A DNA stretch of 49,667 nucleotides from a virus, in IMG/VR virus record IMGVR_UViG_3300045988_167549, positions 1 to 49,667 of that record; one strand, written 5' to 3'. Each line of letters starts with the position of its first letter. The stretch's first letter is position 1. Shown one piece after another: positions 2,623 to 49,667 of this stretch. The translations under genes and the position numbers were made by a program. The notes below the pieces were generated by a model that was given only the letters and a program-made list of their open reading frames with translations, had not been told where the DNA came from and searched no databases.

Positions 2623-3225
2623 CTAAACCTCCAAATGTTCTTCGTAAATATAACTAGCTTCTAAATCTGCACTATGAAGCAATACCGCCCATTTGCATTT
2701 ATTCCAACAACCACTTACTGCATTCCAATTCTCTTTAGGTTCATATCCACCCATATGAGCTCTAATTGCATACATTTCATCTAAAGTTAACCTTATAAAA
2801 CTACTTAATATGATGATGCTTTTCTCTCCATGCCCCAATGGAACTTGGTCATCTACTTGATAAAAGGGAACTTTTTCCCATTTTCCAGTTACATCATTCT
2901 TTTTATTTCTTGTGCTTACTGTATAAAAATTAACTTTGCATAAATCATGCAGTAAACCACATATAGCAACATTCTCTAAAGGAATATTTAAATCTGTGTA
3001 ATGCTCTGCTTTAGATTTTAAAACTCTATATACATTTAAACTATGTTGAGCTAGTCCACCCTCGTAATTACTGTGGAATCTTGTACTAGCTGGAGCAGTA
3101 AAGTAATCATGTTTACATAACCATTCAATTAATCTATCCATTCCTGGTCTTTCAATTGTTTCTAATATGCTAACAATCTCTTTTTTATTAGCTTCAACAT
3201 TTGCTCTTATTTCTAACTCTGTCAT
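2623..3225 (-). CDS. HD-domain phosphohydrolase
   Basis: H...HD signature (AQHSLNV, GLLHDLCK) typical of HD-superfamily hydrolases. Confidence 0.75.
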   Translation of the reverse strand: MTELEIRANVEANKKEIVSILETIERPGMDRLIEWLCKHDYFTAPASTRFHSNYEGGLAQHSLNVYRVLKSKAEHYTDLNIPLENVAICGLLHDLCKVNFYTVSTRNKKNDVTGKWEKVPFYQVDDQVPLGHGEKSIIILSSFIRLTLDEMYAIRAHMGGYEPKENWNAVSGCWNKCKWAVLLHSADLEASYIYEEHLEV

Positions 3226-9948: not shown

Positions 9949-10021
9949 AGCATGTCTTAGAAATAATAAGATGTGCTTTTTTTATTGATGCAATGTTCAA
10001 CCTTTCATTAGCATTTAAGAG

Positions 10022-10060
10022 TAGTATTTAGGAATAGTATTTAGGAATAGTATTTAGCGA
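10022..10060. repeat. Three tandem 13-bp repeats (TAGTATTTAGGAA), candidate unwinding element of the origin
   Basis: Copies start at 10022, 10035 and 10048. Confidence 0.8.
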
Positions 10061-10095
10061 CTTCGGAGGTGGCTCTATAACTAGCCTCCCAGGGA

Positions 10096-10224
10096 AATAG
10101 GGAAGCAACTTGGAACCAATAGGGAAGCAACTTGGAACTAAAAAGAGGCAATAGGGAAGCAACTTGGAACCAAAAAGGGGCAATAGGGAAGCAACTTGGA
10201 ACCAATAGGGAAGCAACTTGGAAC
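10096..10224. repeat. Five 21-bp iterons AATAGGGAAGCAACTTGGAAC (plasmid origin)
   Basis: Identical copies at 10096, 10118, 10150, 10182 and 10204; spacing 22/32/32/22 bp; directly upstream of rep. Confidence 0.9.
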
Positions 10225-10288
10225 TTTGTAGTAAAATAGAGGGTTTGGACCTATTTTTCTACTTGTTTTTGGGAAAATCACCATTTTT

Positions 10289-10358: not shown

Positions 10359-11438
10359 ATGAATAAGAATATATTAATAACGCCAAATTCTATTGCAAGG
10401 GGGAATTACGCTATAGATGCAAAAGAAAATAATTTATTTTTAAAGATAATGCATTCAGTTCAAAGAGATTATAGAGAATATTTAGTTACTAAAAGAAAAG
10501 ATGAGATTTTAACTGAAAGTGAAATAGAGATATGGAATAAGCTTAATTCCTTAGAAACTTTAGAGGCTAAAATAACTTTTGAAGATTTAAAAGAAATATA
10601 CAAGCATAAAGCCGATTTAACTCAAGAAAATATAAAATCAAATTTAGAGATATTAAGAAAATGTGAAATATCAATAGATACTGAATTAAGGGATGGAACT
10701 AGGGCTTCATTGCATGCAGGACTTATAAACCATTATTATTTTATAGAAGGAACAAGAGATATAATGATTGTTGTTCCAGCAAAAATTTATAAATTCTTAT
10801 TTGATTTGGGATTAGGTCATAGTCAAAATGCATTACAAATCTTATACAATTTAAGAAGTCAATATTCACAAAGATTATATTTAATATTAAGAAGCTGGGC
10901 TGGAGTAAAGAAAAATATAGATTTTACTGTTGAAGATTTAAGAACAATGTTAAAGTTAGATGGCAAATATCCAAGTTATAAATTATTTAAGGCGAATGTT
11001 CTTAAAAGAGCTATGGATGAAATAAATAAAACTGGAGTTATGAATGTTGAAATTTTTGATGAAATTAAAGTTGGAAGAAGCATAAAAAAAGTAATTTTTT
11101 CAGTTAAAGATAATGAACCTCGTAAATATGTTGATTTATTTGAAGAAAAAGATGAATCAGTATTGTGGTTAAGTTATATTACAGTTGAAAATGAAGCACT
11201 TAAAGAAAGATTGGAATTAAAATATAGTGATATGGATTTACGCAGCCCTATAGTGTTAGATATATTTATGAAAGCCTATGATAAAACTTTAAAAAGGGAC
11301 AATAGATTTACTATGATACAAGATAAAAAAGGGAAAAGTAATTTTGCATTATTTAATCACATTGTGTCAGGGGAATTATTAACTCATGAGTTATCAATAG
11401 AAAATCAATTTAATGAGGGTATATTAGGAGAATCTTAA
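10359..11438 (+). CDS. Rep_3/RepB-type iteron-binding replication initiator
   Basis: N-terminal NSIARGNYAIDAKENNLFLKIM pattern; iterons immediately upstream. Confidence 0.8.
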   Translation: MNKNILITPNSIARGNYAIDAKENNLFLKIMHSVQRDYREYLVTKRKDEILTESEIEIWNKLNSLETLEAKITFEDLKEIYKHKADLTQENIKSNLEILRKCEISIDTELRDGTRASLHAGLINHYYFIEGTRDIMIVVPAKIYKFLFDLGLGHSQNALQILYNLRSQYSQRLYLILRSWAGVKKNIDFTVEDLRTMLKLDGKYPSYKLFKANVLKRAMDEINKTGVMNVEIFDEIKVGRSIKKVIFSVKDNEPRKYVDLFEEKDESVLWLSYITVENEALKERLELKYSDMDLRSPIVLDIFMKAYDKTLKRDNRFTMIQDKKGKSNFALFNHIVSGELLTHELSIENQFNEGILGES

Positions 11439-11485: not shown

Positions 11486-12394
11486 ATGTATTATATTTAT
11501 AAATTTTTAGATGAAAATCAAAAAGAAATTTATATAGGAATTACAAATAATATTAAAAGAAGAGTTTCTCAACAGCATTTCACTTCAAATGGTCATTTAA
11601 ATAAGTTATGTTATGAAGAAACTAGATATATTGTATATTCTAAGTGTTTAAATAAAGATGATGCTAAAATTAAGGAAAGATATTTAATAAATGAATTAGA
11701 ACCTAAATATAATAAAATACATAATAATAAACAAAAATTTAATTTTATTATCGATGATTTTAATTGGAGGTACATTCCTTTTAATAAAGAGAAATACTTA
11801 AAGAGCATAAAAAACTCAACAATAAACAAAGAAAACTCTTATAGTTTAAATAAATTTGATAAAATAGATTTGCCTTTAAATTCAGTGGAAATTGAAAATG
11901 AAGTAGATTATGCAAAGCAAAAAATAAAATTAATAAAAAACAAAGGGTTAAAAGTTGCTTGTGTTTTTAGCATTGATCCTAAAGAGAAAGTTTATGCTGT
12001 AAATATAAATGGAATAAAATATATACCATTTTATAATATAGAACGAGCCCTAGGAATTTATGGCCCAATGGCTTCAAATAAATTATCACATTTAATTAGA
12101 AATAAAATTATAGATGCAAATGATATAATAGCTGTTTCTGATATTGAATTTATAAAACGTGTAATTATAAGTAATGTATCTACTGTTTATGGAAGAGAAA
12201 TATATCCGGGTAAGATTTATTTAATTAATGAGAAAATAGTGCCTTTAGTAGTGGAGAATTTAATAGGGAAAAATATAAATAAGTATATAAGGCCCGAAAA
12301 TAGTAATGCTTATAAATTTAAAAAATATTTATTTGTGTTATGGGTAGAAGTTAGTTTTAATGTTAAAATATTGCCTACAGAAAATAGGTTTTAA
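11486..12394 (+). CDS. GIY-YIG nuclease-domain protein with unknown C-terminal domain
   Basis: YIYKF...IYIGITNNIKRRVSQQH...ERYLINELEPKYN matches the GIY-YIG motif order. Confidence 0.7.
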   Translation: MYYIYKFLDENQKEIYIGITNNIKRRVSQQHFTSNGHLNKLCYEETRYIVYSKCLNKDDAKIKERYLINELEPKYNKIHNNKQKFNFIIDDFNWRYIPFNKEKYLKSIKNSTINKENSYSLNKFDKIDLPLNSVEIENEVDYAKQKIKLIKNKGLKVACVFSIDPKEKVYAVNINGIKYIPFYNIERALGIYGPMASNKLSHLIRNKIIDANDIIAVSDIEFIKRVIISNVSTVYGREIYPGKIYLINEKIVPLVVENLIGKNINKYIRPENSNAYKFKKYLFVLWVEVSFNVKILPTENRF

Positions 12395-12423: not shown

Positions 12424-12501
12424 TTTGTAAAGAGATGGTAAAAAGAGTAAAATGAATAATATTAAGTAAAGTTTATGAGAAAAATAATTTTAAAATAAGT
12501 A

Positions 12502-12559
12502 TTGCATTATGTAATACAATGTAGTATTATTAATACATAAAGTTAATACATTTAATACA
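12502..12559 (+). promoter_or_regulatory. par promoter and parC-like repeat cluster
   Basis: TTGCAT 12502-12507, 17 nt, TATTAT 12525-12530; TAATACA at 12512, 12531, 12544 and 12553. Confidence 0.5.
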
Positions 12560-12581
12560 AAGTAGTAAAGGGGAATAAACT

Positions 12582-13493
12582 ATGAAACTTTTAGGATTAG
12601 ACAATGGTTATAATTTTACAAAGACTAGCGAGGGGGTAAGCATACTATCAACTATCAAGCATGGTGTAGATGATATAAATACTAACGTGCTTCAAGTCAG
12701 AATCGGCAAGAAAAACTATGTTGTTGCTGATGAAAATGGTACTTATGTAGCAGATGCTGACAAATTAAAAACAGAAGAATCAAGAGAGCTTTTAAAGGTA
12801 TGTACATTAACTGCTATAGGATTAAGTTATCCGGAAGAATCATTTATTGATGTTGAAGTTGTTGCTGGTCTACCAGTAGATTATTTTACTAACCAAAAGG
12901 AAGATCTTAAGGATCTATTAGAAAGCTTCAATGAAAAAATATTAATAAACAGCGTAGGTAAAGAACAAAAAATAAGAATTACAAAAGCTACTATATATCC
13001 ACAAAGTGCTGGAGTAGTATTTAGTAAAGCTAAACAAGTTAAAGGCGAAACTAGTCTTGTAATAGATATTGGTGGTGGTACATGGGATATATCACAATTT
13101 GATGGCTTAAAAATGACTAAGAAGCGTTCTTATAGTGAAGGAATGTTAATTCTATACTCTAAAATAGCTCAATACTTAAATTCAAATTTCTACACTAAAT
13201 ATAATACTTCTGATATTTATGCTTTAACTGAAAGAAAATATTTCACAGTTGCTGGAGAAAGAAAAGATATAAGTGTTGCAAATAATGTTGTAGAAAATCA
13301 TGTTTCTAAAGTTGTTACTGATTTAAAAAGAGATTTTGATACAACTAATGTAGATAACATATTCCTTATTGGTGGTGGAGCTAAGCCTTTATACGAGTTA
13401 TTAAAGAAGTCATTCCCAAATGCAGTACTAGAATCAGAAGCTCAAATGACTAATGCTAAATGCTTTGAATTAATGGGACAAATGAAAAGATAG
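12582..13493 (+). CDS. parM: ParM/StbA actin-like plasmid segregation ATPase
   Basis: GLDNGYNFTKT, DIGGGTWDIS and LIGGGA phosphate/adenosine motifs. Confidence 0.85.
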   Translation: MKLLGLDNGYNFTKTSEGVSILSTIKHGVDDINTNVLQVRIGKKNYVVADENGTYVADADKLKTEESRELLKVCTLTAIGLSYPEESFIDVEVVAGLPVDYFTNQKEDLKDLLESFNEKILINSVGKEQKIRITKATIYPQSAGVVFSKAKQVKGETSLVIDIGGGTWDISQFDGLKMTKKRSYSEGMLILYSKIAQYLNSNFYTKYNTSDIYALTERKYFTVAGERKDISVANNVVENHVSKVVTDLKRDFDTTNVDNIFLIGGGAKPLYELLKKSFPNAVLESEAQMTNAKCFELMGQMKR

Positions 13494-13506
13494 GTAAGGT
13501 GATTAG

Positions 13507-13782
13507 ATGGCAGGAGAAAGAAAGGTAAGAAGTTTTTCTCTGAATACAGAAGAAGATAAAGATATATTAGATAAATTAGAAGAAGTTAATAATATATCTG
13601 AGTACATTAAAAAATTAATAAGACAGGATATTTCTAATGGAACAAGCTTAACTGCAACTCAACGTGAAGAAGTTAAAAGAATTGTTATGGAAATATTAAA
13701 AGATAAGGCTATTGAAATTAAAGAAGAAGATATTGATGAAAAATTTGATCCAGATGCAGTAGATGCATTAGATCAATTTTAA
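13507..13782 (+). CDS. parR: ParR-like ribbon-helix-helix adaptor
   Basis: Small gene after parM; basic beta-strand start RKVRSFSLN, then helices, then an acidic tail. Confidence 0.6.
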   Translation: MAGERKVRSFSLNTEEDKDILDKLEEVNNISEYIKKLIRQDISNGTSLTATQREEVKRIVMEILKDKAIEIKEEDIDEKFDPDAVDALDQF

Positions 13783-13810
13783 AATGAATAAAAATTATTA
13801 AAATGTAAAT

Positions 13811-13850
13811 AATAAAAAAAGAAAGGATAAACTTATTTAATTATCCTTTC
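13811..13850 (-). terminator. Perfect 10-bp stem GAAAGGATAA/TTATCCTTTC with T-run on the minus strand
   Basis: Read directly between convergent genes. Confidence 0.7.
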
Positions 13851-13857
13851 AAAAGGG

Positions 13858-14331
13858 TTATTTTATTAGGTTTGTGATTGCACTTATATGCTCACTGGTT
13901 AAAGCTGAAGACTTTAAATAGTGATAAATAGCATGGAAGTCATTCGCAAACTTTTTATTTTTATCTGATTCTGTTTTTAAATTATACTCTAAAAAATTTC
14001 TGATAGCCAAAACTTTACTTCTAGTTAATTGTTTATTTTTTAGCTTGGAGCTTATCAGTTCTTTTAGAAATAGAAGTTGTATTTCTTTATCAGATTTTGA
14101 AAAATTAAATGATATATCTTCATTTTTTATTATATGTTTATTTTTATATTCATTTAATTGTTTTTGGTAGTACAAATCTGGTTTCATATGTTTACATGCT
14201 ATAACTTCTTCTGCTGTATATTTTTTATAGGGAATATGTTTTCTAATACCTGTCCTGATTAGAGTAGGTAACATTAATATAACTGCTTTTATTAGCAGAA
14301 CTCCTATAAAGATGGTTAATAAGTTTGTCAT
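13858..14331 (-). CDS. Membrane-anchored hypothetical protein (start at MTNLL)
   Basis: N-terminal hydrophobic helix; AGGAGTGA RBS before ATG 14331. Confidence 0.55.
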   Translation of the reverse strand: MTNLLTIFIGVLLIKAVILMLPTLIRTGIRKHIPYKKYTAEEVIACKHMKPDLYYQKQLNEYKNKHIIKNEDISFNFSKSDKEIQLLFLKELISSKLKNKQLTRSKVLAIRNFLEYNLKTESDKNKKFANDFHAIYHYLKSSALTSEHISAITNLIK

Positions 14332-14363
14332 TTTTATCACTCCTGTTTTTAAAATTTCTTCTA

Positions 14364-14426
14364 CCCTTACGGGTTAATGTTCCTCCTTTCGAACCTCATG
14401 GCGTGCCAATCGGTAAGCCTTTCGGC
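14364..14426 (-). other. 63-bp GC-rich structured island in the leader, flanked by 10-bp direct repeats
   Basis: ATTTCTTCTA at 14354-14363 and 14427-14436; minus-strand hairpins GCC-GAAA-GGC and ACCC-GUAA-GGGU. Confidence 0.4.
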
Positions 14427-14607
14427 ATTTCTTCTATAGATTTACTAATAATGTTTTGTATAAATTTTATGGATGTTTTGTATAGGATGTTGTCTTTAGA
14501 ATTGAAGTTTTATATTATAATATATGCTTTTTTATTTGATTTAGTACAAGATATTGTATGTAAAAATATTACCCAACAAACCTATGGGTGTTAAGCTAGT
14601 AATAGCC

Positions 14608-14642
14608 TAAAATAAAACCCCCAATAAAAAGATATTGAGGGT
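14608..14642 (-). terminator. Rho-independent terminator of the ftsK-like operon
   Basis: ACCCTCAATA-cttttt-TATTGGGGGT (one G-U pair) followed by TTTATTTT. Confidence 0.7.
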
Positions 14643-14647
14643 CTGAA

Positions 14648-15229
14648 TTATGAAAATAAATGAGTGGATAGATTATCATAATTTAAATCAGTGTAGATGA
14701 TCTCGAAGTTCTTGCTATTGTATCTTACACCAGGAGTTGGACGAGCAACTATTAGGATGGGAAATGTTCCCTCGCATTTAACTTCTAGCTCTTTATCTCT
14801 ATAAAGTTTTTCGTATAGCTGGAATTTAGTATTTTCCGTATAATGAGTATAATCAACTTCTAAAATAGTAAAATATTTATAACCATCTTTTTTAAATATT
14901 ACAAATGCATCTGCTCTTATAATTCCTTTAAGATATTTTGGTTGCATTTTAACTTCTACTATTTCACAATCATTAGCTGCTAAAAATTTTAAGTAATCTA
15001 ATGTTATTAAATCATGGTCGCTTATCTTTTTATCTAATATAAAGACTTTTTCTTTACTATAGTTGGATTTATAACTTTTTATTAATCCCATTTTATTTTC
15101 AAGGTCAGATAATCTCCTTCTTGCATTTTCGTACGATTTATTAAAAAATAAATATTGAGCTTGTTTTATAGTTATTCCTCTATATTGTTCTATGTGTTTT
15201 AATATTAGCTTATCTCTTTGCATTAACAT
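14648..15229 (-). CDS. Replication-relaxation-family protein (N-terminal winged helix)
   Basis: LILKHIEQYRGITIKQAQYLFF...ARRRLSDLENKMGLIK pattern; overlaps the upstream gene by 7 nt. Confidence 0.55.
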   Translation of the reverse strand: MLMQRDKLILKHIEQYRGITIKQAQYLFFNKSYENARRRLSDLENKMGLIKSYKSNYSKEKVFILDKKISDHDLITLDYLKFLAANDCEIVEVKMQPKYLKGIIRADAFVIFKKDGYKYFTILEVDYTHYTENTKFQLYEKLYRDKELEVKCEGTFPILIVARPTPGVRYNSKNFEIIYTDLNYDNLSTHLFS

Positions 15230-16521
15230 TTAACTCTACCTTTCCTTTCATTTCTTTTACTTTCTTTTCTTTCATTCTTAGTTTCCTTTTCTGTTGCAGC
15301 TTCTAAGAAAATTACTTTATTTTTATCTAGATCTATTGGTGTGTGAGTAAACTTAACTTCTTCTACTTCTAATTTTTTTATTTTTTGTTGTGGTTTATGT
15401 GGTTTATTTGGAACTATAATTTCTTTTACATACTTTTGTAGTATTTCATAGTTTTCATCCATTGAAGGGACTTTCACCATATCTAGCCCTTGTGAACCAA
15501 AAATTAAACATTCTCTTTCTTTAAGCTTAACTGCACCTGAATCTTCTATTATATTTTCACTATCTCTTTTAGAACGCTGTCTTAATGTTATACAGCACAT
15601 TTGTGATTTGACCTCACTATCAATATTTGCGACAGTACTTCTTTGGGTAACACTAAGGAAATGTACTCCTGCAGCTCTACCAGCTTTAACAATAGTTAAT
15701 ATATTCGTCCAACATTTATTTTTTAATTGTTTAATTTCTTCATTATCGCTTTCTTTTGCTATAAAGAATGATATTTCTTCTATTACAAAGTAAATTCTTT
15801 TTAATTTATTTTTGTTATTTTTATTGTAATGACTTAAATTTTTATAGCCTTGTGAATTAAACTTGCGGCATCTTTCATCAACTTTTTTAGCTACTTTTTC
15901 TAGCATTATGCTTACTTCTTCTAAGGTATTACCAACAAATTTTACAGGCTTACAATTAGAAAATTGCCCTATTTCTCCTTTAATAATTTGACTTATATAT
16001 AAATCTATTGTGTTGGAATTGTTGTATATTAAATTAGTTAATATGGAAGATAATAAGAATGTTTTCCCTGTCCCTGTCATTCCCCCTATAAGTATGTGTG
16101 GGTCTTTTTCTATATCTATAAAGAAATTTTTTTCACTAAAATTTTTGCCTATAAAAATCAAATTATTTGGTGATTTTACTGGAATAAAATCATAATTTTT
16201 TAATTCTTCATTAATTACTTCTATTTTAATTAAATCTGAAAATCTTATATCTTCTATTGTTACAATTCCCCTTAAAGAGCTTTCTAGGGAATCAATATGT
16301 TTTTCTAAATCTTTATAACTTTTACCTGCTGGAGATTTAACTGTTAATTCCACTCCATTTTTTATTTGCTTATTTTTTATAATTTTAAAATTAAGCTTTA
16401 AGTTGGCCATTGTTTTGTTCCATCTATAAGCAGTTATGTTTAATCTGTTTAATAAATAACTACTACCTTCCTTTGCTAAAATAACCCCACCAGTTATTAG
16501 GGATAAGCTAATTAAATCCAT
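15223..16521 (-). CDS. FtsK/SpoIIIE-family membrane DNA translocase / coupling-protein-like ATPase
   Basis: N-terminal hydrophobic segment; Walker A GGMTGTGKT; Walker-B-like YFVIEEISF; size as in Tn916 Orf21/TcpA-type proteins. Confidence 0.8.
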   Translation of the reverse strand: MDLISLSLITGGVILAKEGSSYLLNRLNITAYRWNKTMANLKLNFKIIKNKQIKNGVELTVKSPAGKSYKDLEKHIDSLESSLRGIVTIEDIRFSDLIKIEVINEELKNYDFIPVKSPNNLIFIGKNFSEKNFFIDIEKDPHILIGGMTGTGKTFLLSSILTNLIYNNSNTIDLYISQIIKGEIGQFSNCKPVKFVGNTLEEVSIMLEKVAKKVDERCRKFNSQGYKNLSHYNKNNKNKLKRIYFVIEEISFFIAKESDNEEIKQLKNKCWTNILTIVKAGRAAGVHFLSVTQRSTVANIDSEVKSQMCCITLRQRSKRDSENIIEDSGAVKLKERECLIFGSQGLDMVKVPSMDENYEILQKYVKEIIVPNKPHKPQQKIKKLEVEEVKFTHTPIDLDKNKVIFLEAATEKETKNERKESKRNERKGRVKC

Positions 16522-16615
16522 AAATACAACTCCTGAAAAAATATTTTATACTACATTCTATGCTACAGTTTATAAATAATTACATTTGGTAAAAATAAAA
16601 ATGAGGTGATAAATT

Positions 16616-17023
16616 ATGATGGGTAGAACTCATACTGCTATTGGAATAACTGTAGCAATTCCAATAATTAAATATTTAGATTTGTCTTATATTTCTATGG
16701 CTGGTGCCATTGTAGGTTCTGTGGCTCCCGATTGGGATTTATATTTAGGAATAAAACATAGAACAATTACACATAGCTTGTTATTTTTATTAATAAGTAG
16801 TGTTTTAGTTGGAATATTTAATATAGATATGGCTATATTGTGGTTTATAGCTTATGGACTACATCTTATTGCAGATAGTTTTACAAAGATGGGTGTACCT
16901 TTCTTTTATCCATTTGTTAAAAAAAAGTATGGAGCAAAGCTTATTTATGCTTCTGGAGCTGAAGATCTATTTATTTTATTAGTTGCCATCTATATAATTT
17001 CAGAAATGATAAAAATTAAATAA
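16616..17023 (+). CDS. YdjM-family (DUF457) membrane-bound metal-dependent hydrolase
   Basis: GRTHTAIG...APDWDL...HRTITHS motifs; multi-TM. Confidence 0.7.
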   Translation: MMGRTHTAIGITVAIPIIKYLDLSYISMAGAIVGSVAPDWDLYLGIKHRTITHSLLFLLISSVLVGIFNIDMAILWFIAYGLHLIADSFTKMGVPFFYPFVKKKYGAKLIYASGAEDLFILLVAIYIISEMIKIK

Positions 17024-17041
17024 ATTTAGTATTTAAAATAT

Positions 17042-17082
17042 AAAACTGCGTATTTTATCCTAAAAAACTGCGTGATTTATCC
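17042..17082. repeat. Two 19-bp direct repeats AAAACTGCGT(a/g)(t/a)TTTATCC, 22-bp period; inverted AAAACTGCG core at 17170-17178
   Basis: Read directly in a convergent intergenic region. Confidence 0.7.
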
Positions 17083-17208
17083 GAATTGCTATTAAATTAT
17101 AATGTTTGTTACTATTAAAGCTAGTAAACAAGCCATTCTTATAAAAAACTTCGCTTTTTCAGAATTGTGCGCAGTTTTATTTTTGCTTTAATAAATTAAT
17201 TATTAAAC

Positions 17209-17251
17209 GTAAAAAAAATAAAAAAGGCTAGAGAACTTAATCCCTAGCCTT
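17209..17251 (-). terminator. Terminator after the endolysin gene
   Basis: AAGGCTAG / CTAGCCTT stem; T-run on the minus strand. Confidence 0.65.
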
Positions 17252-17257
17252 AAATAA

Positions 17258-18196
17258 TTAAACTACTATTTTCTTTACTTCTTCTAACTTTAATTCTAAT
17301 TCTTCAACTCTCTTTTTAATAGCTTCTACGCTATCATCTTTGCATATCTTTCTATTTTCACAGAATCCATTTTGTAGATAGTGATCTATTCCAGATACAA
17401 ATGTTCCTTTTTTAACAGCAGCTGCAATATCTGGATTTAAATCAAGATAATCTCCTTCACAATATTCTTCTGGTATTGGTGGTAAAGCTAATCTACCTTC
17501 TTTCTTTCCATAATCAGCATAATGTTTATATGGGTTTTCTTTATAAGTTGCGTTACTTGCTATATCTGTATACCTCTTTAAATACCAATTTTTACTGAAT
17601 AAATACATAGAATAATTCATCTCCTCTTTAACTTCTTTATTATTTGTTGTAATAATATTATTATCTATCCCCTTAGCTATTGCTAAAGCTACTTTATCTG
17701 CTGTATATTTAGAAACATCATTTGTATTTCCTACAAATAAAGGCTCTATTAATATAGCAGGCATATTAGTTTTCCTTAATACTATTAATCCACTTTCCTT
17801 ATAACCAGTTCCGTATGTCCTATCAAATGTTCCTAGTTCTTTACAAATACTTTCGTTTACTTTTTTTGCATAAGATCTAGATACTGTAGAACCTGTATTG
17901 ATTATTACTTCAGTTCCATTTGCACTAGTACTATCACTGCAATTTAAATGTATCTCTACGTATAAATCAGCACCCCAACTATTTGCTTGTTCTGCTCTTA
18001 CATAGCAATCTTCATAGTTATAAGAATTAGCTTTATCAATTCTTAATAATTTTGCTTCATATCCATTTTTATTTAGTATTTCGACCAAAATAGGTGCTAT
18101 TTTTCTAGTTTCATCGCTTTCATTTAGTAACCCTACTGCACCACATCCAGCAACTCCACTTGCAGTATGTCCTACTGCTACAGCTATTTTTTTCAT
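17258..18196 (-). CDS. Endolysin: N-acetylmuramoyl-L-alanine amidase (Amidase_3-like) with a non-canonical C-terminal domain
   Basis: MKKIAVAVGHT...E...H pattern of type-3 amidases; adjacent to the holin. Confidence 0.8.
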   Translation of the reverse strand: MKKIAVAVGHTASGVAGCGAVGLLNESDETRKIAPILVEILNKNGYEAKLLRIDKANSYNYEDCYVRAEQANSWGADLYVEIHLNCSDSTSANGTEVIINTGSTVSRSYAKKVNESICKELGTFDRTYGTGYKESGLIVLRKTNMPAILIEPLFVGNTNDVSKYTADKVALAIAKGIDNNIITTNNKEVKEEMNYSMYLFSKNWYLKRYTDIASNATYKENPYKHYADYGKKEGRLALPPIPEEYCEGDYLDLNPDIAAAVKKGTFVSGIDHYLQNGFCENRKICKDDSVEAIKKRVEELELKLEEVKKIVV

Positions 18197-19169: not shown

Positions 19170-19334
19170 TTATGAATGGAGTCTATTTTTATTTGCCTCC
19201 AATTTATCTATTTCTTTATTCAATAATCTTCTAACATATTCGCTTCGGGAGATAGCAAGCTTTTCAGTTTGCTCGGTTAAAAATCTATCTTCATTGTCAG
19301 TCAATCTTACTTTTATACTCTTATCTCTAGCCAT
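19170..19334 (-). CDS. Ribbon-helix-helix protein, 54 aa (CopG/MobC-like)
   Basis: KSIKVRLTDNEDRFLTEQTEKLAISRSEYVRRLL pattern; GGGGGGA RBS; below the ORF-track length cut-off. Confidence 0.6.
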   Translation of the reverse strand: MARDKSIKVRLTDNEDRFLTEQTEKLAISRSEYVRRLLNKEIDKLEANKNRLHS

Positions 19335-36317: not shown

Positions 36318-36581
36318 TTATTTTTCAACCTTATAATTTTCCCATTTCTTATAAGCATCTACATACATTTCTTTTTTATCTCCATTGTATGTACACTCAT
36401 AATACATTCCATCAAATAGAGTAGTACTAAGTAAAGCTTTATTATTTTGAAGTGTTTTACAACTCCATACCATAAATACATCATCTGTTGTAATTTGCTT
36501 TTTATCTGTTTTATCTAAATGTCTATTGGTATAATCACATACCTCTTGTTTACACCATTCCAAAAACTCTTTTTCATTCAT
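36318..36581 (-). CDS. Hypothetical 87-aa protein
   Basis: AGGAGGA RBS. Confidence 0.55.
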   Translation of the reverse strand: MNEKEFLEWCKQEVCDYTNRHLDKTDKKQITTDDVFMVWSCKTLQNNKALLSTTLFDGMYYECTYNGDKKEMYVDAYKKWENYKVEK

Positions 36582-36594
36582 TGTAATTTTCCTC

Positions 36595-36687
36595 CTAGCA
36601 AATCCATATTAAAAACAACCATAACGCTATCCACCACAGTGTATTCTTTATATCTTGTAGTACTTTAACAATTTCTTTATTTTCCAT
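36595..36687 (-). CDS. 30-aa hydrophobic micro-ORF, translationally coupled (TAATG)
   Basis: MENKEIVKVLQDIKNTLWWIALWLFLIWIC; its stop precedes the next RBS. Confidence 0.35.
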   Translation of the reverse strand: MENKEIVKVLQDIKNTLWWIALWLFLIWIC

Positions 36688-36995
36688 TAATCTTCTATCC
36701 TATCAATTCCATATTCTTTTGCAACTTCATACTCAACTTTACAACCTCTTGCATTTCTCCAATCTCCACCGAAATATACAATATCAGCTTGTGAAAGAAG
36801 TTGTATTGATTTACCTAAATACCAAACCGGTATAGATTTATTAATTTCTCCTGGATAATCTTCAATAAAAGAATCTATTAATTCTACAGGCTCTCCTATT
36901 GTTTTTTCTGCTCTAATTCTAATTTCTTCTCTAGCCTTTAAAATCTCTTCATCTGTCAAACCTCTCATTGGTTGAGATATAAATAATTGTTTCAT
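36687..36995 (-). CDS. DUF4406 / nucleoside 2-deoxyribosyltransferase-like protein (start at MKQLFISQPM)
   Basis: MKQLFISQPMRGL... N-terminus typical of DUF4406; AAGGAGGA RBS. Confidence 0.55.
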   Translation of the reverse strand: MKQLFISQPMRGLTDEEILKAREEIRIRAEKTIGEPVELIDSFIEDYPGEINKSIPVWYLGKSIQLLSQADIVYFGGDWRNARGCKVEYEVAKEYGIDRIED

Positions 36996-37050: not shown

Positions 37051-37812
37051 CTATTCAGCAAGTGCTAATTCTTTAGTATTAAGATATTCATCGTAATACA
37101 TAAATTTATAACCTTTAGTTTTTTTATATTTACCTCTGCAAACATTACTTAAACTATCTGTCCTAACCCCATAATAATTTGCAGTTTCTATCATAGAATT
37201 AAAAATTTTCATATCATTTAAGCATATTATTTTTCTAGACCTTGAATTACCTTTTCCCTTTTTAGCTATACTAATTTTTTCTTTTGTTTCTTTTGAATGA
37301 GATTTACCATACATAGCATTATTCTCTCCCATATTAAGCACTCTAAGCTTTTCGATAGTTTCTTTCGTATGCTTTATACCTAATCTATATTTATTTCCTT
37401 TACGAATACTTTTTAGTTTTTCAATAGTTTCTTTAGATAATTTTTTACCCATATGACTTTTTCTTATTTTATTTTTCGTTTCTTGAGTATGTTTTTTACC
37501 TAACCAAGGTTTTAAACCTCTTACTCCTCCACCTCCTAAAGTCATATTGTATCCATTGCCTTTATAAGAATTATATAATTTTATATACTTAATTTCTAAA
37601 TCATCTAATTCATCAATTGAACACTCACAAATAACTTCAAACTCAAAATTATTTACACCATACTTATTAATAGCCCTATATAAAATATAATGTTTAATTT
37701 CATCTCTCTTATAGTTATTTAAATGCTCTCTTTTTCTTTTATCAATATCAACTGATTGTCCTATATAGACTTTGCCATTAATTTTATTAGTTATTTTATA
37801 TATTCCTACCAT
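37051..37812 (-). CDS. Free-standing GIY-YIG homing endonuclease with NUMOD3 repeats
   Basis: GIYKITN...VYIGQS...R..EH...YN plus four GKxHSxETKxKI-type repeats. Confidence 0.85.
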   Translation of the reverse strand: MVGIYKITNKINGKVYIGQSVDIDKRKREHLNNYKRDEIKHYILYRAINKYGVNNFEFEVICECSIDELDDLEIKYIKLYNSYKGNGYNMTLGGGGVRGLKPWLGKKHTQETKNKIRKSHMGKKLSKETIEKLKSIRKGNKYRLGIKHTKETIEKLRVLNMGENNAMYGKSHSKETKEKISIAKKGKGNSRSRKIICLNDMKIFNSMIETANYYGVRTDSLSNVCRGKYKKTKGYKFMYYDEYLNTKELALAE

Positions 37813-37845
37813 TTTAATCACCTCTTAGTTATATTATACAATAAT

Positions 37846-40191: not shown

Positions 40192-41952
40192 CTATAATCC
40201 TAATAATTTTCTATCAAGAATTTTAACCTTAGATATTACTTTAATAGTTTTAATTTTATTCTCTAATTCTGCCAAATTATCAGGAGCATCATCATGAACA
40301 CTATATAATTGCCCTTGAAAATCTAATATTTCATCAATAGCCTTCTTGCTATCCTCACAATCAGATATAATAATAATTTGTCCATTATTTACTGGATCAA
40401 CAATAGTACTTATTTTTTCATCTTTATTCTTTTTCTGCATCTCATTAATCCATTCATAACTCCTATTTTTAAGAATTTCACTTGAAGCAATCAATTCTTT
40501 TATTTTTACCACATCTGCACCTTGATAAGTATTTTTTTCAATATTAATATGAGTAACATCTAAATTTCTTTCAAGTACTTCAACAACCTTTTCACAATAT
40601 TGATTAAAAGTCATTTTTCTATGAACTAAATCTCTTATATACGTAAAATCATTAGTTGCTTTGCTTCCAACCATAATATTAGTACTATCTGACTTCTTAT
40701 TTGTAGTACTTGCTGGGTCGACACTAAGAATAGTTTTAACAAAACTATGTTGATCTATTTCTTCACGAGTTTGGGTCTTAACTGATTTGAACCATTTTTC
40801 CCCTATAGAAGTGGCATCATTCATTAACTCACTCATAAAAGATTTTCTATTTTCCCAGTATTTAATAGCAAGATCATTAAAACAATCCCATTTTTCTGGC
40901 CACCAAACCCTAAACTGCATTTCTTCTTTATGCAACTCATAAAACTTTCTAGCATTAACTTTTCTTTCTTCTTTATTTAATTTTTCATCAAAATAAATAT
41001 CATGACATTGTTGCCATAATTCTGATTCAAATATATCTTCTACAACTTGTCCTGGCTCCAAAATTATAGCTCTTCTCAAAAGAGTAAAATAATCATTATT
41101 TCTACTTAATTTACTCATAAGACAATCCATATGCAATACAGTTCCAATTGCTATTATTTTAGTTGCTGATTTTATCTTTTTACCATTTCTATATACAGCC
41201 TTATCACCAACTTCTTCAATCTCTTTAGTCCATTTATTGTATTGCTTTTCTCTTGCCGAGTCAGTTAAAATATTTTTCTCATCTTGAAAGTCATCACCAA
41301 TAAACACAGTAGGCCTTATTCCTCCCCAGTTAGAACCCCTAACAGAAGTTCCAGACCCAACAGTCTTTATATAAGTTCCATTTGTAAATTCAACTTCATT
41401 TGCATTTACAGTATACTTTTCACCATTACCTTTAAGTATTTTTGCATTAATTAACTTGCCAAAACATTTAATTATTTTTTTATTTTCGTTGAATATCTTT
41501 TTTATAGAATCAAGGAATTGAGTTGCATCTGTATCTGTTTTTGCTCCTAATAAAGTGAATGAAGATTTTTTATAGCAATGTAACCATACACTAACAGACA
41601 TATCAAAGATAGTAGTCTTAGCCATTCCCCTTGGCTCTATAATCGCAGCTTTATCATATAAATCTTCAATAAATATATTGTTTGCTACTCCCCAAAGCTC
41701 ATAATGACCTTTAGATAATTCTCTATTAGTATTACTATCTTTAACTACGAAGGTATCACTCATAAAATAAAGACAAAAAAACTCAATATCTCTTTCACCT
41801 AATGCTTTAGCAAGAGTATCAAGTTCACTATTATATTTATTTAGAAGTATCTTGGCCGTTTCTTCATTATAATGTTTAACTAAATATTTATTTAATAGAT
41901 AAACTTCATATTTAATTTCAACATCAAATTTCAATCCATCATAATATATCAT
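40192..41952 (-). CDS. Terminase large subunit (start at MIYYDG)
   Basis: P-loop-like PRGMAKTT, Walker-B-like VFIGDDFQDE, C-terminal nuclease-like region; AAAGGAG RBS. Confidence 0.8.
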   Translation of the reverse strand: MIYYDGLKFDVEIKYEVYLLNKYLVKHYNEETAKILLNKYNSELDTLAKALGERDIEFFCLYFMSDTFVVKDSNTNRELSKGHYELWGVANNIFIEDLYDKAAIIEPRGMAKTTIFDMSVSVWLHCYKKSSFTLLGAKTDTDATQFLDSIKKIFNENKKIIKCFGKLINAKILKGNGEKYTVNANEVEFTNGTYIKTVGSGTSVRGSNWGGIRPTVFIGDDFQDEKNILTDSAREKQYNKWTKEIEEVGDKAVYRNGKKIKSATKIIAIGTVLHMDCLMSKLSRNNDYFTLLRRAIILEPGQVVEDIFESELWQQCHDIYFDEKLNKEERKVNARKFYELHKEEMQFRVWWPEKWDCFNDLAIKYWENRKSFMSELMNDATSIGEKWFKSVKTQTREEIDQHSFVKTILSVDPASTTNKKSDSTNIMVGSKATNDFTYIRDLVHRKMTFNQYCEKVVEVLERNLDVTHINIEKNTYQGADVVKIKELIASSEILKNRSYEWINEMQKKNKDEKISTIVDPVNNGQIIIISDCEDSKKAIDEILDFQGQLYSVHDDAPDNLAELENKIKTIKVISKVKILDRKLLGL

Positions 41953-42007
41953 CCAAAACACTCCTTTCTTAATATCAATAAAAAAGTACTTAGAATTTAC
42001 TAAGTAC

Positions 42008-42607
42008 TTATTTTTTATCTTCATATTTTTTTATTAATCTATAAAAGGTATTTCTTTTAAGTCCCAACTTCTCCATAGCTTCATTACCTTTTATTTTTCT
42101 ATTCTTCCATTGATCATAAACTTCAGTCCAATTGTCAGGAAAATCTATTTCTTTTCTTCCTTTATATTTTCCTTGTTCTTTTGCTATAGCAATCCCTTCG
42201 GCCTGACGTTGTCTTATATTTAATCTTTCTTGTTCTGCCATGGTTGCTAAAACTTCAATCAAAAGATTATTAATCATATCCATAAGCCACTCTTGGCCCT
42301 CTGGTATATCCATCATTGATGTAGGAATATCTAATATTTTAATTCTTACACCCTCATTTTTATAATATTCAAGTTCTTGTTTTACTTCAGATTTATTTCT
42401 TCCAAGTCTATCTAGTGATTTTACATATATAACATCACCTTTTTGAGCAACTTTTCTCATTAATTGATATTCTGGTCTATTAAAATCTTTACCACTAACT
42501 TTATCCTGGAATATAAATCTATCATCTACATACTTTCTTAGCTCTACTAATTGTCTATCTAAATTTTGTTCCTTTGTTGATACTCTTGAATAACCATATA
42601 TTCTCAT
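42008..42607 (-). CDS. Small serine recombinase (resolvase/invertase family)
   Basis: MRIYGYSRVSTKEQNLDRQ...LDRLGRN catalytic motifs; C-terminal HTH. Confidence 0.9.
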   Translation of the reverse strand: MRIYGYSRVSTKEQNLDRQLVELRKYVDDRFIFQDKVSGKDFNRPEYQLMRKVAQKGDVIYVKSLDRLGRNKSEVKQELEYYKNEGVRIKILDIPTSMMDIPEGQEWLMDMINNLLIEVLATMAEQERLNIRQRQAEGIAIAKEQGKYKGRKEIDFPDNWTEVYDQWKNRKIKGNEAMEKLGLKRNTFYRLIKKYEDKK

Positions 42608-42844: not shown

Positions 42845-43273
42845 TTAAATATTATCTTTGCCTTTATTGTCTATGTTTATTTGGCATAACATCTCCTCTA
42901 TATTAACAGGAGTTAAATCCTTATCTACATTATTATTAACATCTTGTATCTTATTAGTAGGAGTTCCAAGTACTCTATTAAGAGCATATATTATAGCATC
43001 TAAAGAAGTCTTATCCGATGAACTCTTAAGGGCTATCTTAATTAATTTATCTATTAAAGGGTCTATATTGTTTAATATTTTACTGTCTACATTAGATTTT
43101 AGCATTTGAATGCTTTTGTTAAGCTCTGCCTTAAATATTTCATTATTATTTTTCCAATTAGAAACACTAATTCTACTAACACCAATTATATTAGCAACAT
43201 CAGTTATAGTCTCACCTTGCACTAATAACTCAATAGCTTTTAATTGCTTCTCATTTAACTCTTTATCAACCAT
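42845..43273 (-). CDS. HTH protein in the small-terminase position (putative TerS)
   Basis: LNEKQLKAIELLVQGETITDVANIIGVSRISVSNW HTH; first gene of the late operon; AGGTGA RBS. Confidence 0.5.
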   Translation of the reverse strand: MVDKELNEKQLKAIELLVQGETITDVANIIGVSRISVSNWKNNNEIFKAELNKSIQMLKSNVDSKILNNIDPLIDKLIKIALKSSSDKTSLDAIIYALNRVLGTPTNKIQDVNNNVDKDLTPVNIEEMLCQINIDNKGKDNI

Positions 43274-43539
43274 AATAACATCACCTACTTTCTTTACAAC
43301 TTTACATAAAAATAGACACATACAATTAAATATATGTGCCTTTCAGATAAATCTCTATGATACTATTTTAACACCTTAAAAATATTAAAACCTAACATCT
43401 TAGTAACAACTAAGATATAAATTAAGTAGAAGTAATATTACATTTATGTTTACATAATGATTTCTACTAAATGTAAGGCTTAAAACCTAGTATTTTCAAT
43501 ACTTTAGACTAAACATTACAGAATTACATATTTTAAAAA

Positions 43540-49530: not shown

Positions 49531-49667
49531 TTATCTTATTGATATATTAATTCTTCCATTCTTATAAATCCTAACTTTAAATTTATTTTTACAAAAAGGA
49601 CATACTACATTTTGATTTTTATACACCTCTTTTGCAATTACGTGTTCATTACACTCCATACACGTAA
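49531..49667 (-). CDS. C-terminal part of the junction-spanning zinc-ribbon ORF (same gene as 1-195)
   Basis: Frame is continuous with 195->1; stop TAA at 49533-49531. Confidence 0.5.
   Translation of the reverse strand, partial: TCMECNEHVIAKEVYKNQNVVCPFCKNKFKVRIYKNGRINISIR

Follow-up and report, generated by a model that had tools for sequence, protein, structure and literature searches.

A 3.44-kb cassette of a clostridial phage-plasmid pairs a TcpA/FtsK-type ATPase with a putative MOB_C-like nuclease and may provide a capsid-independent way across a membrane

We describe a pair of overlapping minus-strand genes at positions 14648-16521 of a 49,667-nt stretch of viral DNA (IMG/VR record IMGVR_UViG_3300045988_167549, positions 1 to 49,667), the whole of which is referred to here as the window. 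The pair encodes a 432-aa ATPase and a 193-aa replication-relaxation (RR) protein and is carried, within a 3.44-kb cassette, on a complete siphovirus-type phage-plasmid of 49.5 kb. Our overall reading, which we regard as evenly balanced between right and wrong, is that the cassette gives this element, and likewise the numerous other carriers of the pair among phages and plasmids of spore-forming Firmicutes, a second, capsid-independent way across a membrane, in which a MOB_C-like nuclease would load a TcpA/FtsK-type pump and the DNA would be either exported through a borrowed pore or driven into the forespore. The pair is not peculiar to this replicon but is a widespread, long-annotated module of the phages and plasmids of spore-forming Firmicutes. 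New here are the boundaries of the cassette, the natural fusions of its two central proteins, the link to MOB_C, a weak membrane anchor with candidate tethers, candidate cis-acting sites and the spore-former distribution.

The operon and its immediate borders consist of the following features.

15223-16521, minus strand: ATPase, 432 aa (open reading frame, ORF, call).
14648-15229, minus strand: RR protein, 193 aa (ORF call).
14605-14644, minus strand: intrinsic terminator directly after the RR stop codon, with a 12-bp stem (14644-14615), a 6-nt loop and a T-run.
16522-16615: divergent intergenic region between the ATPase gene and a YdjM-like gene, with TGTAGYATA twice at 16547-16567.

The ATPase and RR genes share 7 nt (15223-15229). 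An earlier note on this DNA had described two overlapping minus-strand genes with a strong terminator, and both the ORF coordinates and the stem with its T-run bear this out; as judged from its sequence, the terminator at 14605-14644 closes a two-gene operon. A terminator scan of the 5.5-kb region returned six terminator-like sites against 1.6 expected. A promoter presumably lies in 16522-16615, where a simple sigma-70 scan found no site, and no LexA-type box was seen by eye upstream of the YdjM-like gene. Natural fusions, with the ATPase N-terminal and the RR domain C-terminal, recur at lengths of 612-676 aa; P0137, P0142, P0144 and P0155 are examples, and at least 12 of the top 150 matches of an exhaustive profile search are fused in this way. 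Synteny of the pair extends to all relatives inspected, namely a C. perfringens plasmid, Clostridium phage LPCPA58, Bacillus phage Gemini, phage c-st (CST193/CST194), chromosomal elements adjoining integrases, B. thuringiensis and B. wiedmannii plasmids, and plasmids of Thermoanaerobacterium and C. tetani. Because of the 7-nt overlap, the natural fusions and the synteny in every relative inspected, the two proteins are expected to function together.

On sequence comparison and by its modelled fold, the 432-aa product is a TcpA/FtsK-type P-loop DNA translocase. It matches Pfam FtsK_SpoIIIE (PF01580) at 4.6e-15 (56.1 bits vs a cut-off of 24) and PHROG 1358, 'FtsK/SpoIIIE-like protein', at 5.9e-52. 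The Walker A (GMTGTGKT, residues 147-154) and Walker-B-like (YFVIEE, 244-249) motifs that the earlier note had read from the letters are confirmed by conservation, with G150, G152, K153, E248 and E249 invariant in 35 homologues. Among PDB sequences searched with phmmer, TcpA came first (1.9e-15), followed by FtsK (7.6e-9), and the PDB entry was confirmed as TcpA by a BLASTP alignment to the pCW3 translation (E 1e-17; 341 aa aligned at 25% identity). The AlphaFold (AF2) model, with a predicted local distance difference test score (pLDDT) of 81.6, has a short N-terminal helix (2-23), an alpha/beta motor (~45-365) and a disordered basic tail (383-432, pLDDT <50); neither a gamma domain nor any other C-terminal folded domain is present in it. 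A Foldseek search of the PDB with this model returned TcpA at 2.7e-24, the FtsK motor at 6e-20, EssC at 4e-12 (EssC/EccC ~1e-12), HerA at ~1e-8 and a viral packaging ATPase at 2e-6, with HerA and STIV B204 far below TcpA and FtsK. These values, and PADLOC matches that are generic only (SspH and mad8 models at ~1e-12, both to the FtsK domain), speak against a HerA-like, defence or packaging ATPase, the identities that had been put forward as capable of overturning the translocase assignment. An assignment to the Orf21/TcpA/TraB type had also been proposed, of which the TcpA/FtsK part stands by sequence and fold and the TraB part does not, the NCBIfam plasmid_TraB model NF041214 scoring 22.4 bits against a cut-off of 800. 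The description of the protein as a membrane translocase is weakly founded: its N-terminal hydrophobic segment spans ~16 residues with a best Kyte-Doolittle value of 1.17 over 19 aa, below a transmembrane (TM) score, TM-like hydropathy (1.6) is reached by only one of the 35 homologues, and several homologues are without the segment.

The 193-aa partner is predicted, from alignments and its structural model, to be a winged helix joined to a PD-(D/E)XK-like nuclease core. It matches PHROG 9996 at 1.2e-30 and PHROG 2190 ('replication initiation protein') at 1.2e-5. The window protein itself gives no match to Pfam Replic_Relax (PF13814) at E <= 0.1. Relatives that share 47-55% of its residues reach 28-36 bits (cut-off 25.3), PF13814 is matched by 13 of the 17 aligned family members (best E 6.1e-12), and gp68 of Bacillus phage Gemini reaches 46.5 bits. 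By transitive homology, therefore, membership of the Replic_Relax family appears to hold, as the earlier note had proposed together with the winged helix. The AlphaFold model (pLDDT 94.5) places this winged helix at residues 1-64, followed by an alpha/beta core, and residues H72, D107, E124, D126, H129, Y139 and E140 are invariant (alignments A1 and A2). There was no sequence match to the protein in the PDB. Foldseek matches of the model to the PDB are weak throughout (best E 3.7e-3); the plausible ones are PD-(D/E)XK nucleases, namely Bax1, McrC, DdmD, the nickase Nt.BspD6I and BamHI. The model is in line with the literature, in which Replic_Relax is placed in the PD-(D/E)XK superfamily, usually as a fusion to a helix-turn-helix (HTH) domain (PMC3424549).

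In CONJscan, PF13814 stands for the MOB_C relaxases (PMC5357655, Table 1). These enzymes, of which pAD1 TraX is one, combine a winged helix at the N-terminus with an active site of the restriction-endonuclease kind; the direct repeats to which they bind are 70-120 bp away from nic, and no covalent intermediate is formed (PMC12857230). A pAD1-type TraX homologue of pTEF1 scores 28.5 bits against PF13814, and its gene lies just downstream of a VirD4-type coupling-protein gene. Shared profile membership suggests that the short RR family and TraX are distant branches of one family.

The cassette that surrounds the pair is made up as follows.

13783-17222: exchangeable cassette of 3.44 kb, containing ORF160, the spacer, the RR and ATPase genes, the YdjM-like gene and a 9-mer array.
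13858-14340, minus strand: ORF160, 160 aa, a conserved third gene; its product has one strong TM helix at the N-terminus, and its C-terminal domain is soluble and contains an NDAHAIY motif.
14341-14604, minus strand: non-coding spacer with the 12-nt direct repeat TATACAAAACAT in two copies (14451-14462 and 14473-14484; 22-bp spacing).
16616-17023, plus strand: YdjM-family membrane metal-dependent hydrolase, 135 aa (Pfam YdjM 1.5e-23), divergent from the ATPase gene.
17039-17201: array of the 9-mer AAAACTGCG, with three exact copies (one inverted) and a one-mismatch copy, between the 3' ends of convergent genes.

ORF160 reaches a Kyte-Doolittle value of 2.62 over 19 aa. Homologues of it stand behind the pair in L001, a C. 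perfringens plasmid (32% identity), in L013 (34%), in phage LPCPA58 (25%) and in L010 (19%). ORF160 has no match in Pfam, PADLOC or NCBIfam and shows no similarity to pCW3 TcpD. The YdjM-like protein aligns over its full length with the hydrolase of the pCW3 Tcp locus (36482-36976) at 30% identity (BLASTP, E 1e-12). Its gene also adjoins the pair in the C. perfringens plasmid L001 and lies 2 kb from it in the Thermoanaerobacterium plasmid pMU3262 (L036), where this YdjM-like hydrolase gene is downstream of the pair and is followed by a Tad/Cpa pilus locus.

Two stretches of the cassette are candidate DNA sites. Both exact copies of TATACAAAACAT in the window fall in the spacer at 14341-14604, which is a candidate protein-binding region or promoter region for ORF160. 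In the six elements compared, the gap after the RR gene measures 270-370 nt, except in phage c-st with ~625 nt. All six spacers contain a two-copy repeat with 22-25 bp spacing; the conservation of these repeats is suggestive only, with per-spacer shuffle p values of 0.013-0.10 and an offset range that was set post hoc. Across distant elements the spacers share gap length and the two-copy repeat, whereas their sequences have nothing in common but a short TTATACAAAAC-like motif. That the GC-richer stretch of the spacer (14341-14440) encodes a structured RNA was considered and rejected, as Rfam gave no match in the whole window and the fold z-score was -1.0. The second stretch is the AAAACTGCG array, a candidate for a site acting in cis. 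Nowhere in the 49.7-kb window other than at 17042-17178 does the 9-mer occur exactly, and in six related loci the array stays beside the YdjM gene, also where the neighbouring gene differs. The iterons of the Rep_3 initiator and the parC-like repeats of the element fall outside the cassette.

The boundaries of the cassette were delimited by blastn. Identity to the variant phage-plasmids L005, L007 and L009 is 95.2-95.8% over positions 13783-17222 but 79-90% in the remaining phage regions that are shared, and the adjoining ParM, Rep and lysis genes give no alignment; the variants carry an HTH_36-type Rep instead of Rep_3 and a different actin-like partition protein. These alignments indicate that the cassette has been exchanged recently between phage-plasmids. 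An AT-rich motif, AATAATTAATTTATGAA, lies at the YdjM-side boundary (~17177-17218) and occurs twice in L005 (~3055-3120); it may serve in recombination or in regulation and mark the point at which the cassette is swapped.

Such exchange is also what would be expected of a defence or exclusion moron, in which a sequence-directed nuclease and an ATPase motor attack superinfecting phages or rival plasmids. The cassette occupies a classic moron position between lysis and lysogeny/maintenance genes, its identity of 95.8% against ~80% for most of the remaining genome is the high-turnover signature of accessory cassettes, pairs of an ATPase and a PD-(D/E)XK nuclease are a common defence design, and the FtsK domain has the generic SspH and mad8 matches given above. 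We nevertheless judge this explanation improbable. The nuclease, ORF160 and the YdjM-like protein match no PADLOC model, NCBIfam yielded only generic matches below threshold, the ATPase is far nearer to TcpA/FtsK than to the HerA-type defence ATPases, and the pair remains in a constant gene order with backbone functions in Bacillus and Clostridium elements and throughout whole phage genera, unlike typical defence genes with their patchy occurrence.

We consider it rather probable that a site-specific winged-helix nuclease loads a TcpA/FtsK-type DNA pump on the element's own DNA. The folds and families of the two proteins, their coupling, the cassette boundaries, the repeats and the lack of pore genes follow from the data, while we infer that DNA is cleaved, that a cis-acting site exists, that the pump is tethered to the membrane, and where the DNA is taken. 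The winged helix of the RR protein would recognize a site on the element's DNA and its PD-(D/E)XK centre would nick or cut there, as MOB_C relaxases do. The RR protein would then hand the DNA to the translationally coupled (in some relatives fused) 432-aa TcpA/FtsK-type hexameric pump, which is probably tethered to the membrane via ORF160 and/or the YdjM-like protein. In the form of the proposal that we place first, the phage-plasmid would supply a relaxase and a coupling protein and borrow the mating pore of a co-resident Gram-positive conjugative element (Tcp/Tn916-type), with a capsid-independent route between cells as the outcome.

Conjugative mobilisation through the pore of a co-resident element is our tentative first choice for the purpose of the pair, a possible explanation rather than a probable one. 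It was one of three routes offered in the earlier note, beside TraB-style transfer and entry into the forespore; for the first and the last of these there is evidence on both sides. It is placed first because the nearest characterised relatives of both proteins are conjugation proteins; because the gene order is that of coupling-protein-plus-relaxase modules (pTEF1 MOB_C; TcpA with a relaxase in integrative and conjugative elements, ICEs, and integrative and mobilizable elements, IMEs; PMC5357655); because IMEs without a pore carry TcpA-type modules, a TcpA of their own being present in 83 of 144 streptococcal IMEs (PMC5357655); and because one gene of the cassette is homologous to a gene of the Tcp locus and the cassette has repeat sites of its own. 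By analogy, the repeat arrays of the cassette may resemble the direct repeats that TraX binds at oriT (PMC12857230). The absence of mating-pore genes, as stated in the earlier note, was upheld by tblastn with all pCW3 Tcp proteins and by ORF annotation: neither TcpC-H homologues nor other genes of a type IV secretion system (T4SS) were found in the replicon, in which TcpA, the YdjM-like (Tcp-locus) hydrolase and ParM alone were matched, and all large ORFs are phage structural, replication or lysis genes. A 54-aa ribbon-helix-helix (RHH) protein is encoded at 19170-19334 (minus strand), between the tail-fibre and holin genes and 2 kb from the cassette. It exceeds the Pfam threshold for NikA-like mobilisation accessory proteins (29.0 bits vs 27), which is only a hint as to mobilisation, RHH folds having many roles.

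The distribution of the pair was surveyed with both proteins. With the FtsK-like protein, tblastn found matches in 378 phage and 709 plasmid records. A clostridial RR query found 21 plasmids, mostly of Clostridium but also of Sarcina, Thermoanaerobacterium, a Clostridiaceae bacterium and one Priestia, and four Clostridium phage records, two of which are phage D-1873 and the botulinum toxin phage c-st. A Bacillus RR query found 124 plasmids, all of Bacillaceae, and 105 phage records, which by their organism names belong to Bacillus (97), Geobacillus (6) and Staphylococcus (2) and include Gamma, Cherry, WBeta, phIS3501, Andromeda-like phages and Pony/Pookie. In total the pair is present in more than 100 Bacillus/Geobacillus phage records, phage c-st and ~145 plasmids. 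The survey with the clostridial RR alignment recovered Clostridium-type loci only, and a profile search of a set of 5.8 billion proteins likewise returned almost only Clostridium proteins; the exhaustive search with the RR profile yielded 728 clusters at 50% identity with a sharp length peak at 185-210 aa. The idea that the pair is unusual for such elements has to be given up, as it is annotated in Gamma, Cherry, WBeta, Andromeda, c-st, and C. perfringens and B. thuringiensis phage-plasmids. A record labelled 'Listeria phage LM 4-11-1' (L035, OR847448.1, 2.9 kb) was examined as a non-sporulating carrier and rejected: its chromosomal-type FtsK C-terminus includes the gamma domain, so it is probably host DNA, and the gene after the ftsK fragment resembles a housekeeping radical-SAM methyltransferase gene that we take to be rlmN. 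The C. perfringens plasmid NZ_CP102313 (L001, 37 kb) carries, besides the pair, erm(Q) at 1598-2371 beside an IS1595-family element, and is a naturally marked carrier of the pair.

A 68-kb phage-plasmid of B. thuringiensis has the same layout as the window, with a lysis cassette, the pair and third gene, partition and lysogeny control. In phage c-st the pair stands beside the FtsZ-like CST189 and the small regulator CST190, presumably the partition proteins TubZ and TubR. In pMU3262 (13224-18000) genes of the SpoIIIAC/AD family and the Spo0E phosphatase family flank it, and in the C. tetani plasmid both SpoIIID and XerC are ~10 kb away.

Several results weigh against mobilisation by conjugation. 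The classifiable confirmed carriers all belong to endospore-forming lineages, bar the two phage records labelled Staphylococcus, which conjugation does not predict. In all three non-phage plasmid contexts inspected the pair lies outside T4SS operons, and in Bacillus phages regarded as virulent (Andromedavirus; Pony, Pookie; PMC9658697), to which mobilisation would be useless, it is conserved. By hydropathy the ATPase has no convincing N-terminal TM domain, with which coupling proteins dock. A hhalign comparison of the 33-sequence RR profile with the pTEF1 TraX homologue showed no similarity (probability 0.19), so that the apparent tie of the RR protein to proven relaxases consists of shared Pfam membership and architecture alone. 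We found no experiment on any member of the module in the literature; genome papers annotate the pair, speculate on plasmid-type lysogeny or sporulation, and state that its role 'has not been studied' (PMC4319501, PMC4464726, PMC9658697, PMC10459684). MOB-suite types all 21 clostridial carriers as non-mobilizable, which is weak evidence, as CloDF13 is typed likewise. This classic self-coupling MOB_C mobilisable plasmid (L018, NC_002119) is listed as non-mobilizable in PLSDB/MOB-suite, its record being without mobB and mobC annotations, and because the founding MOB_C plasmid is itself so typed, MOB-suite typing is unusable to rule out MOB_C-like mobilisation.

The taxonomic pattern leads to a close rival, delivery at the sporulation septum, which we hold to be somewhat unlikely. 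Here the nuclease or adaptor would mark the element's DNA and the FtsK/SpoIIIE-like pump would move it across the asymmetric septum, or prevent its exclusion, so that the element reaches the forespore and survives in the spore. Confinement of the carriers to endospore formers (with the two Staphylococcus-labelled exceptions) fits this explanation, which would also account for retention of the pair by virulent and temperate phages and plain plasmids alike. The sporulation-family genes flanking the pair in pMU3262 and SpoIIID in the C. tetani plasmid point the same way, as do the partition systems beside the pair in extrachromosomal prophages (ParM here, the FtsZ-like gene in c-st, ParA in B. 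thuringiensis). In the fusions the winged helix is C-terminal to the motor, where FtsK has its gamma winged helix. Absence from the inspected T4SS operons and the missing TM domain favour the septum as well, and the idea has been raised in the literature (PMC4464726, PMC4319501). On the other hand, the ATPase is nearer to TcpA than to FtsK or SpoIIIE and is without the four-helix membrane domain and gamma domain of the latter two, the invariant nuclease centre would have no obvious role, and the annotated regions of the window hold no recognisable sporulation gene. The taxonomic restriction itself could stem from limited search sensitivity and shared ancestry. Mobilisation through a borrowed pore is kept, tentatively, as the first choice.

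The rest of the replicon bears on two further explanations. Outside the cassette, the features that matter here are the following.

10009-10057: 13-nt tandem repeat upstream of the rep gene.
10092-10225: six Rep_3-type iterons, upstream of the rep gene.
10359-11438: Rep_3 initiator gene.
12500-12567: TAATACA repeats upstream of parM, resembling a parC centromere.
12582-13493: ParM-type actin gene.
13507-13782: small gene downstream of ParM.
40192-42024: terminase gene.
42008-42607, minus strand: serine resolvase/invertase gene, overlapping the start of the large terminase gene.
42845-43321, minus strand: gene for a 158-aa HTH protein, upstream of the resolvase/invertase gene.

The window is a circular assembly with a unit of 49,548 bp, because its first 119 nt (positions 1-119) recur at its end (49549-49667). 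Its gene content (Rep_3, ParM, repressor, terminase, portal, capsid, tail and lysis genes) identifies it as a siphovirus-type phage-plasmid. The replicon encodes a cI-like repressor and a Rha antirepressor, RecT, an exonuclease and SSB, together with terminase, portal, capsid, tape measure, tail fibre, holin and amidase; the terminase on which the earlier note relied for DNA packaging is thus present. The serine resolvase/invertase likely functions in multimer resolution, and the 158-aa HTH protein may be the small terminase. Two GIY-YIG homing-endonuclease genes were also seen, one right behind the Rep_3 gene (11486-12394, plus strand) and one among the head genes (37051-37821, minus strand). 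An 869-aa primase with a DnaG zinc ribbon (45857-48466, minus strand) shows a borderline match to FtsK_SpoIIIE in the P-loop region at its centre (23.3 bits vs a cut-off of 24), and the replicon may contain in it a second, very divergent FtsK-superfamily ATPase. No near-identical DNA was found in the phage and plasmid collections; the same element is present in Clostridium sp. isolates D53t1_180928_C8 and K13, with an RR protein 99% identical.

With this inventory, initiation of replication, in which the nuclease would nick an origin so that rolling-circle or sigma replication starts during the lytic cycle, with the ATPase as accessory motor, appears less probable still than defence. The Pfam family name and the PHROG 2190 label suggest it, it would explain retention in lytic phages, and the pair is listed among replication genes in virulent Bacillus/Geobacillus phages (PMC10459684, PMC4319501). 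However, the replicon already has a Rep_3 initiator with iterons, the primase/P-loop protein, SSB and RecT/exonuclease, and the cassette has been swapped independently of the replication module, being shared by Rep_3 and HTH_36 elements. To our knowledge FtsK-type pumps do not act as replicative helicases, which counts further against this role. The 'replication' label itself goes back to the annotation of the cryptic plasmid pUA140 (PMC3424549).

Septal housekeeping is the least probable of the explanations, and we think it very improbable. It would have the FtsK-like pump clear, decatenate or help resolve plasmid copies at the closing septum, together with the adjacent partition system. The pair repeatedly adjoins partition loci of three different types, it is often encoded beside segregation systems (PMC9658697), and XerC is ~10 kb from it in the C. 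tetani plasmid. Against this, the element has its own serine resolvase (42008-42607), the pair also occurs in integrated elements and virulent phages, the cassette has been exchanged independently of ParM, and the ATPase has no gamma domain with which to read polarity sequences.

Loading of the pump by the nuclease, whether for export or for entry into the forespore, would be of some consequence. Phage FtsK/SpoIIIE-like genes have been annotated for ~20 years (in B. anthracis typing phages, c-st and C. perfringens phage-plasmids), none with an experimentally shown function, and either outcome would provide the first. With export through a pore, this would become the first TcpA-type pump for which cooperation with a MOB_C-type partner is demonstrated, and by conjugative mobilisation toxin and resistance elements would spread past phage host range, as might apply to erm(Q) on the C. 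perfringens plasmid. Loading into the spore would be a dedicated viral survival mechanism inside the most durable cell type known. The problem has been narrowed to a 3.4-kb cassette with named predicted catalytic residues and candidate DNA sites.

Among known systems, the septal pumps SpoIIIE and FtsK have the same motor fold and move double-stranded DNA across a septum, directed by a winged-helix domain. They differ in their four-helix membrane domain, linker and gamma domain, all of which are absent in the window ATPase, which has a separate nuclease partner and a motor more like TcpA. Streptomyces TraB is an FtsK-like pump that recognizes short repeats (clt) on the plasmid, but it works in a mycelial actinomycete host, has its own C-terminal winged helix and needs no nuclease. 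According to the passage on it in PMC3583192, which cites Zhong 2010, conjugal transfer of pZL12, a plasmid-phage of Streptomyces, requires a main tra gene together with two genes adjacent to it; with this FtsK-type Tra route in a phage-plasmid, the earlier statement that no characterised example was known has to be qualified. The TdtA protein of Thermus thermophilus ICETh1 ('transjugation') is an FtsK/HerA-family pump encoded next to nucleases that allows DNA donation without a T4SS (PMC5365140). TdtA is HerA-like, however, with NurA and a type II restriction enzyme as partners and uptake by the competence system of the recipient, and has no specific homology to the window proteins.

The TcpA systems are closer. 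TcpA of pCW3 is the best sequence and fold match of the window ATPase, and a homologue of a hydrolase from the pCW3 Tcp locus adjoins the pair. The two ATPases are only 25% identical. TcpA has two N-terminal TM helices, and these are absent from the window ATPase. The TcpA construct that was crystallised was likewise without its N-terminal TM domains (PMC12857230). In the TcpA-plus-relaxase modules of Tn916/ICEBs1-type ICEs and streptococcal IMEs, as in the window, the ATPase gene is immediately upstream of the DNA-processing gene, and the streptococcal IMEs carry these modules without a pore, as the window does (PMC5357655). TcpA systems use an MPF_FA mating pore, whereas the window replicon is without a T4SS in cis. 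The relaxases of Tcp/Tn916-type systems are tyrosine-recombinase-like (TcpM) or Rep_trans (MOB_T), in contrast to the putative PD-(D/E)XK partner in the window, and a pairing of TcpA with a MOB_C relaxase was never encountered by Coluzzi et al. (PMC5357655).

The MOB_C modules (TraX of pAD1/pTEF1, MobC of CloDF13) have in common with the RR family of the window the PF13814 family, the N-terminal winged helix and the PD-(D/E)XK domain, and the pTEF1 TraX module has its coupling-protein gene just upstream, as in the window. Just as pAD1 TraX binds direct repeats set off from the nic site (PMC12857230), the window cassette has short repeat arrays. The TraX homologue is longer (261 aa vs ~190 aa for the RR family), and its partner is VirD4-type rather than FtsK/TcpA-type.

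The nearest counterparts are the same pair in other elements, in Bacillus phages Gamma, Cherry, WBeta, Andromeda, Gemini, Pony and Pookie, in Geobacillus siphoviruses, in phage c-st (CST193/CST194) and in 34-40-kb plasmids of C. perfringens. These pairs have an identical gene order with overlapping or abutting genes, often a small membrane protein next, a position after the lysis cassette and/or beside partition genes, and membership of PHROG 1358 and PHROGs 9996/2190. Their proteins are only 22-55% identical to those of the window, where, in addition, the cassette is cleanly delimited and includes a YdjM-like gene and a 9-mer array.

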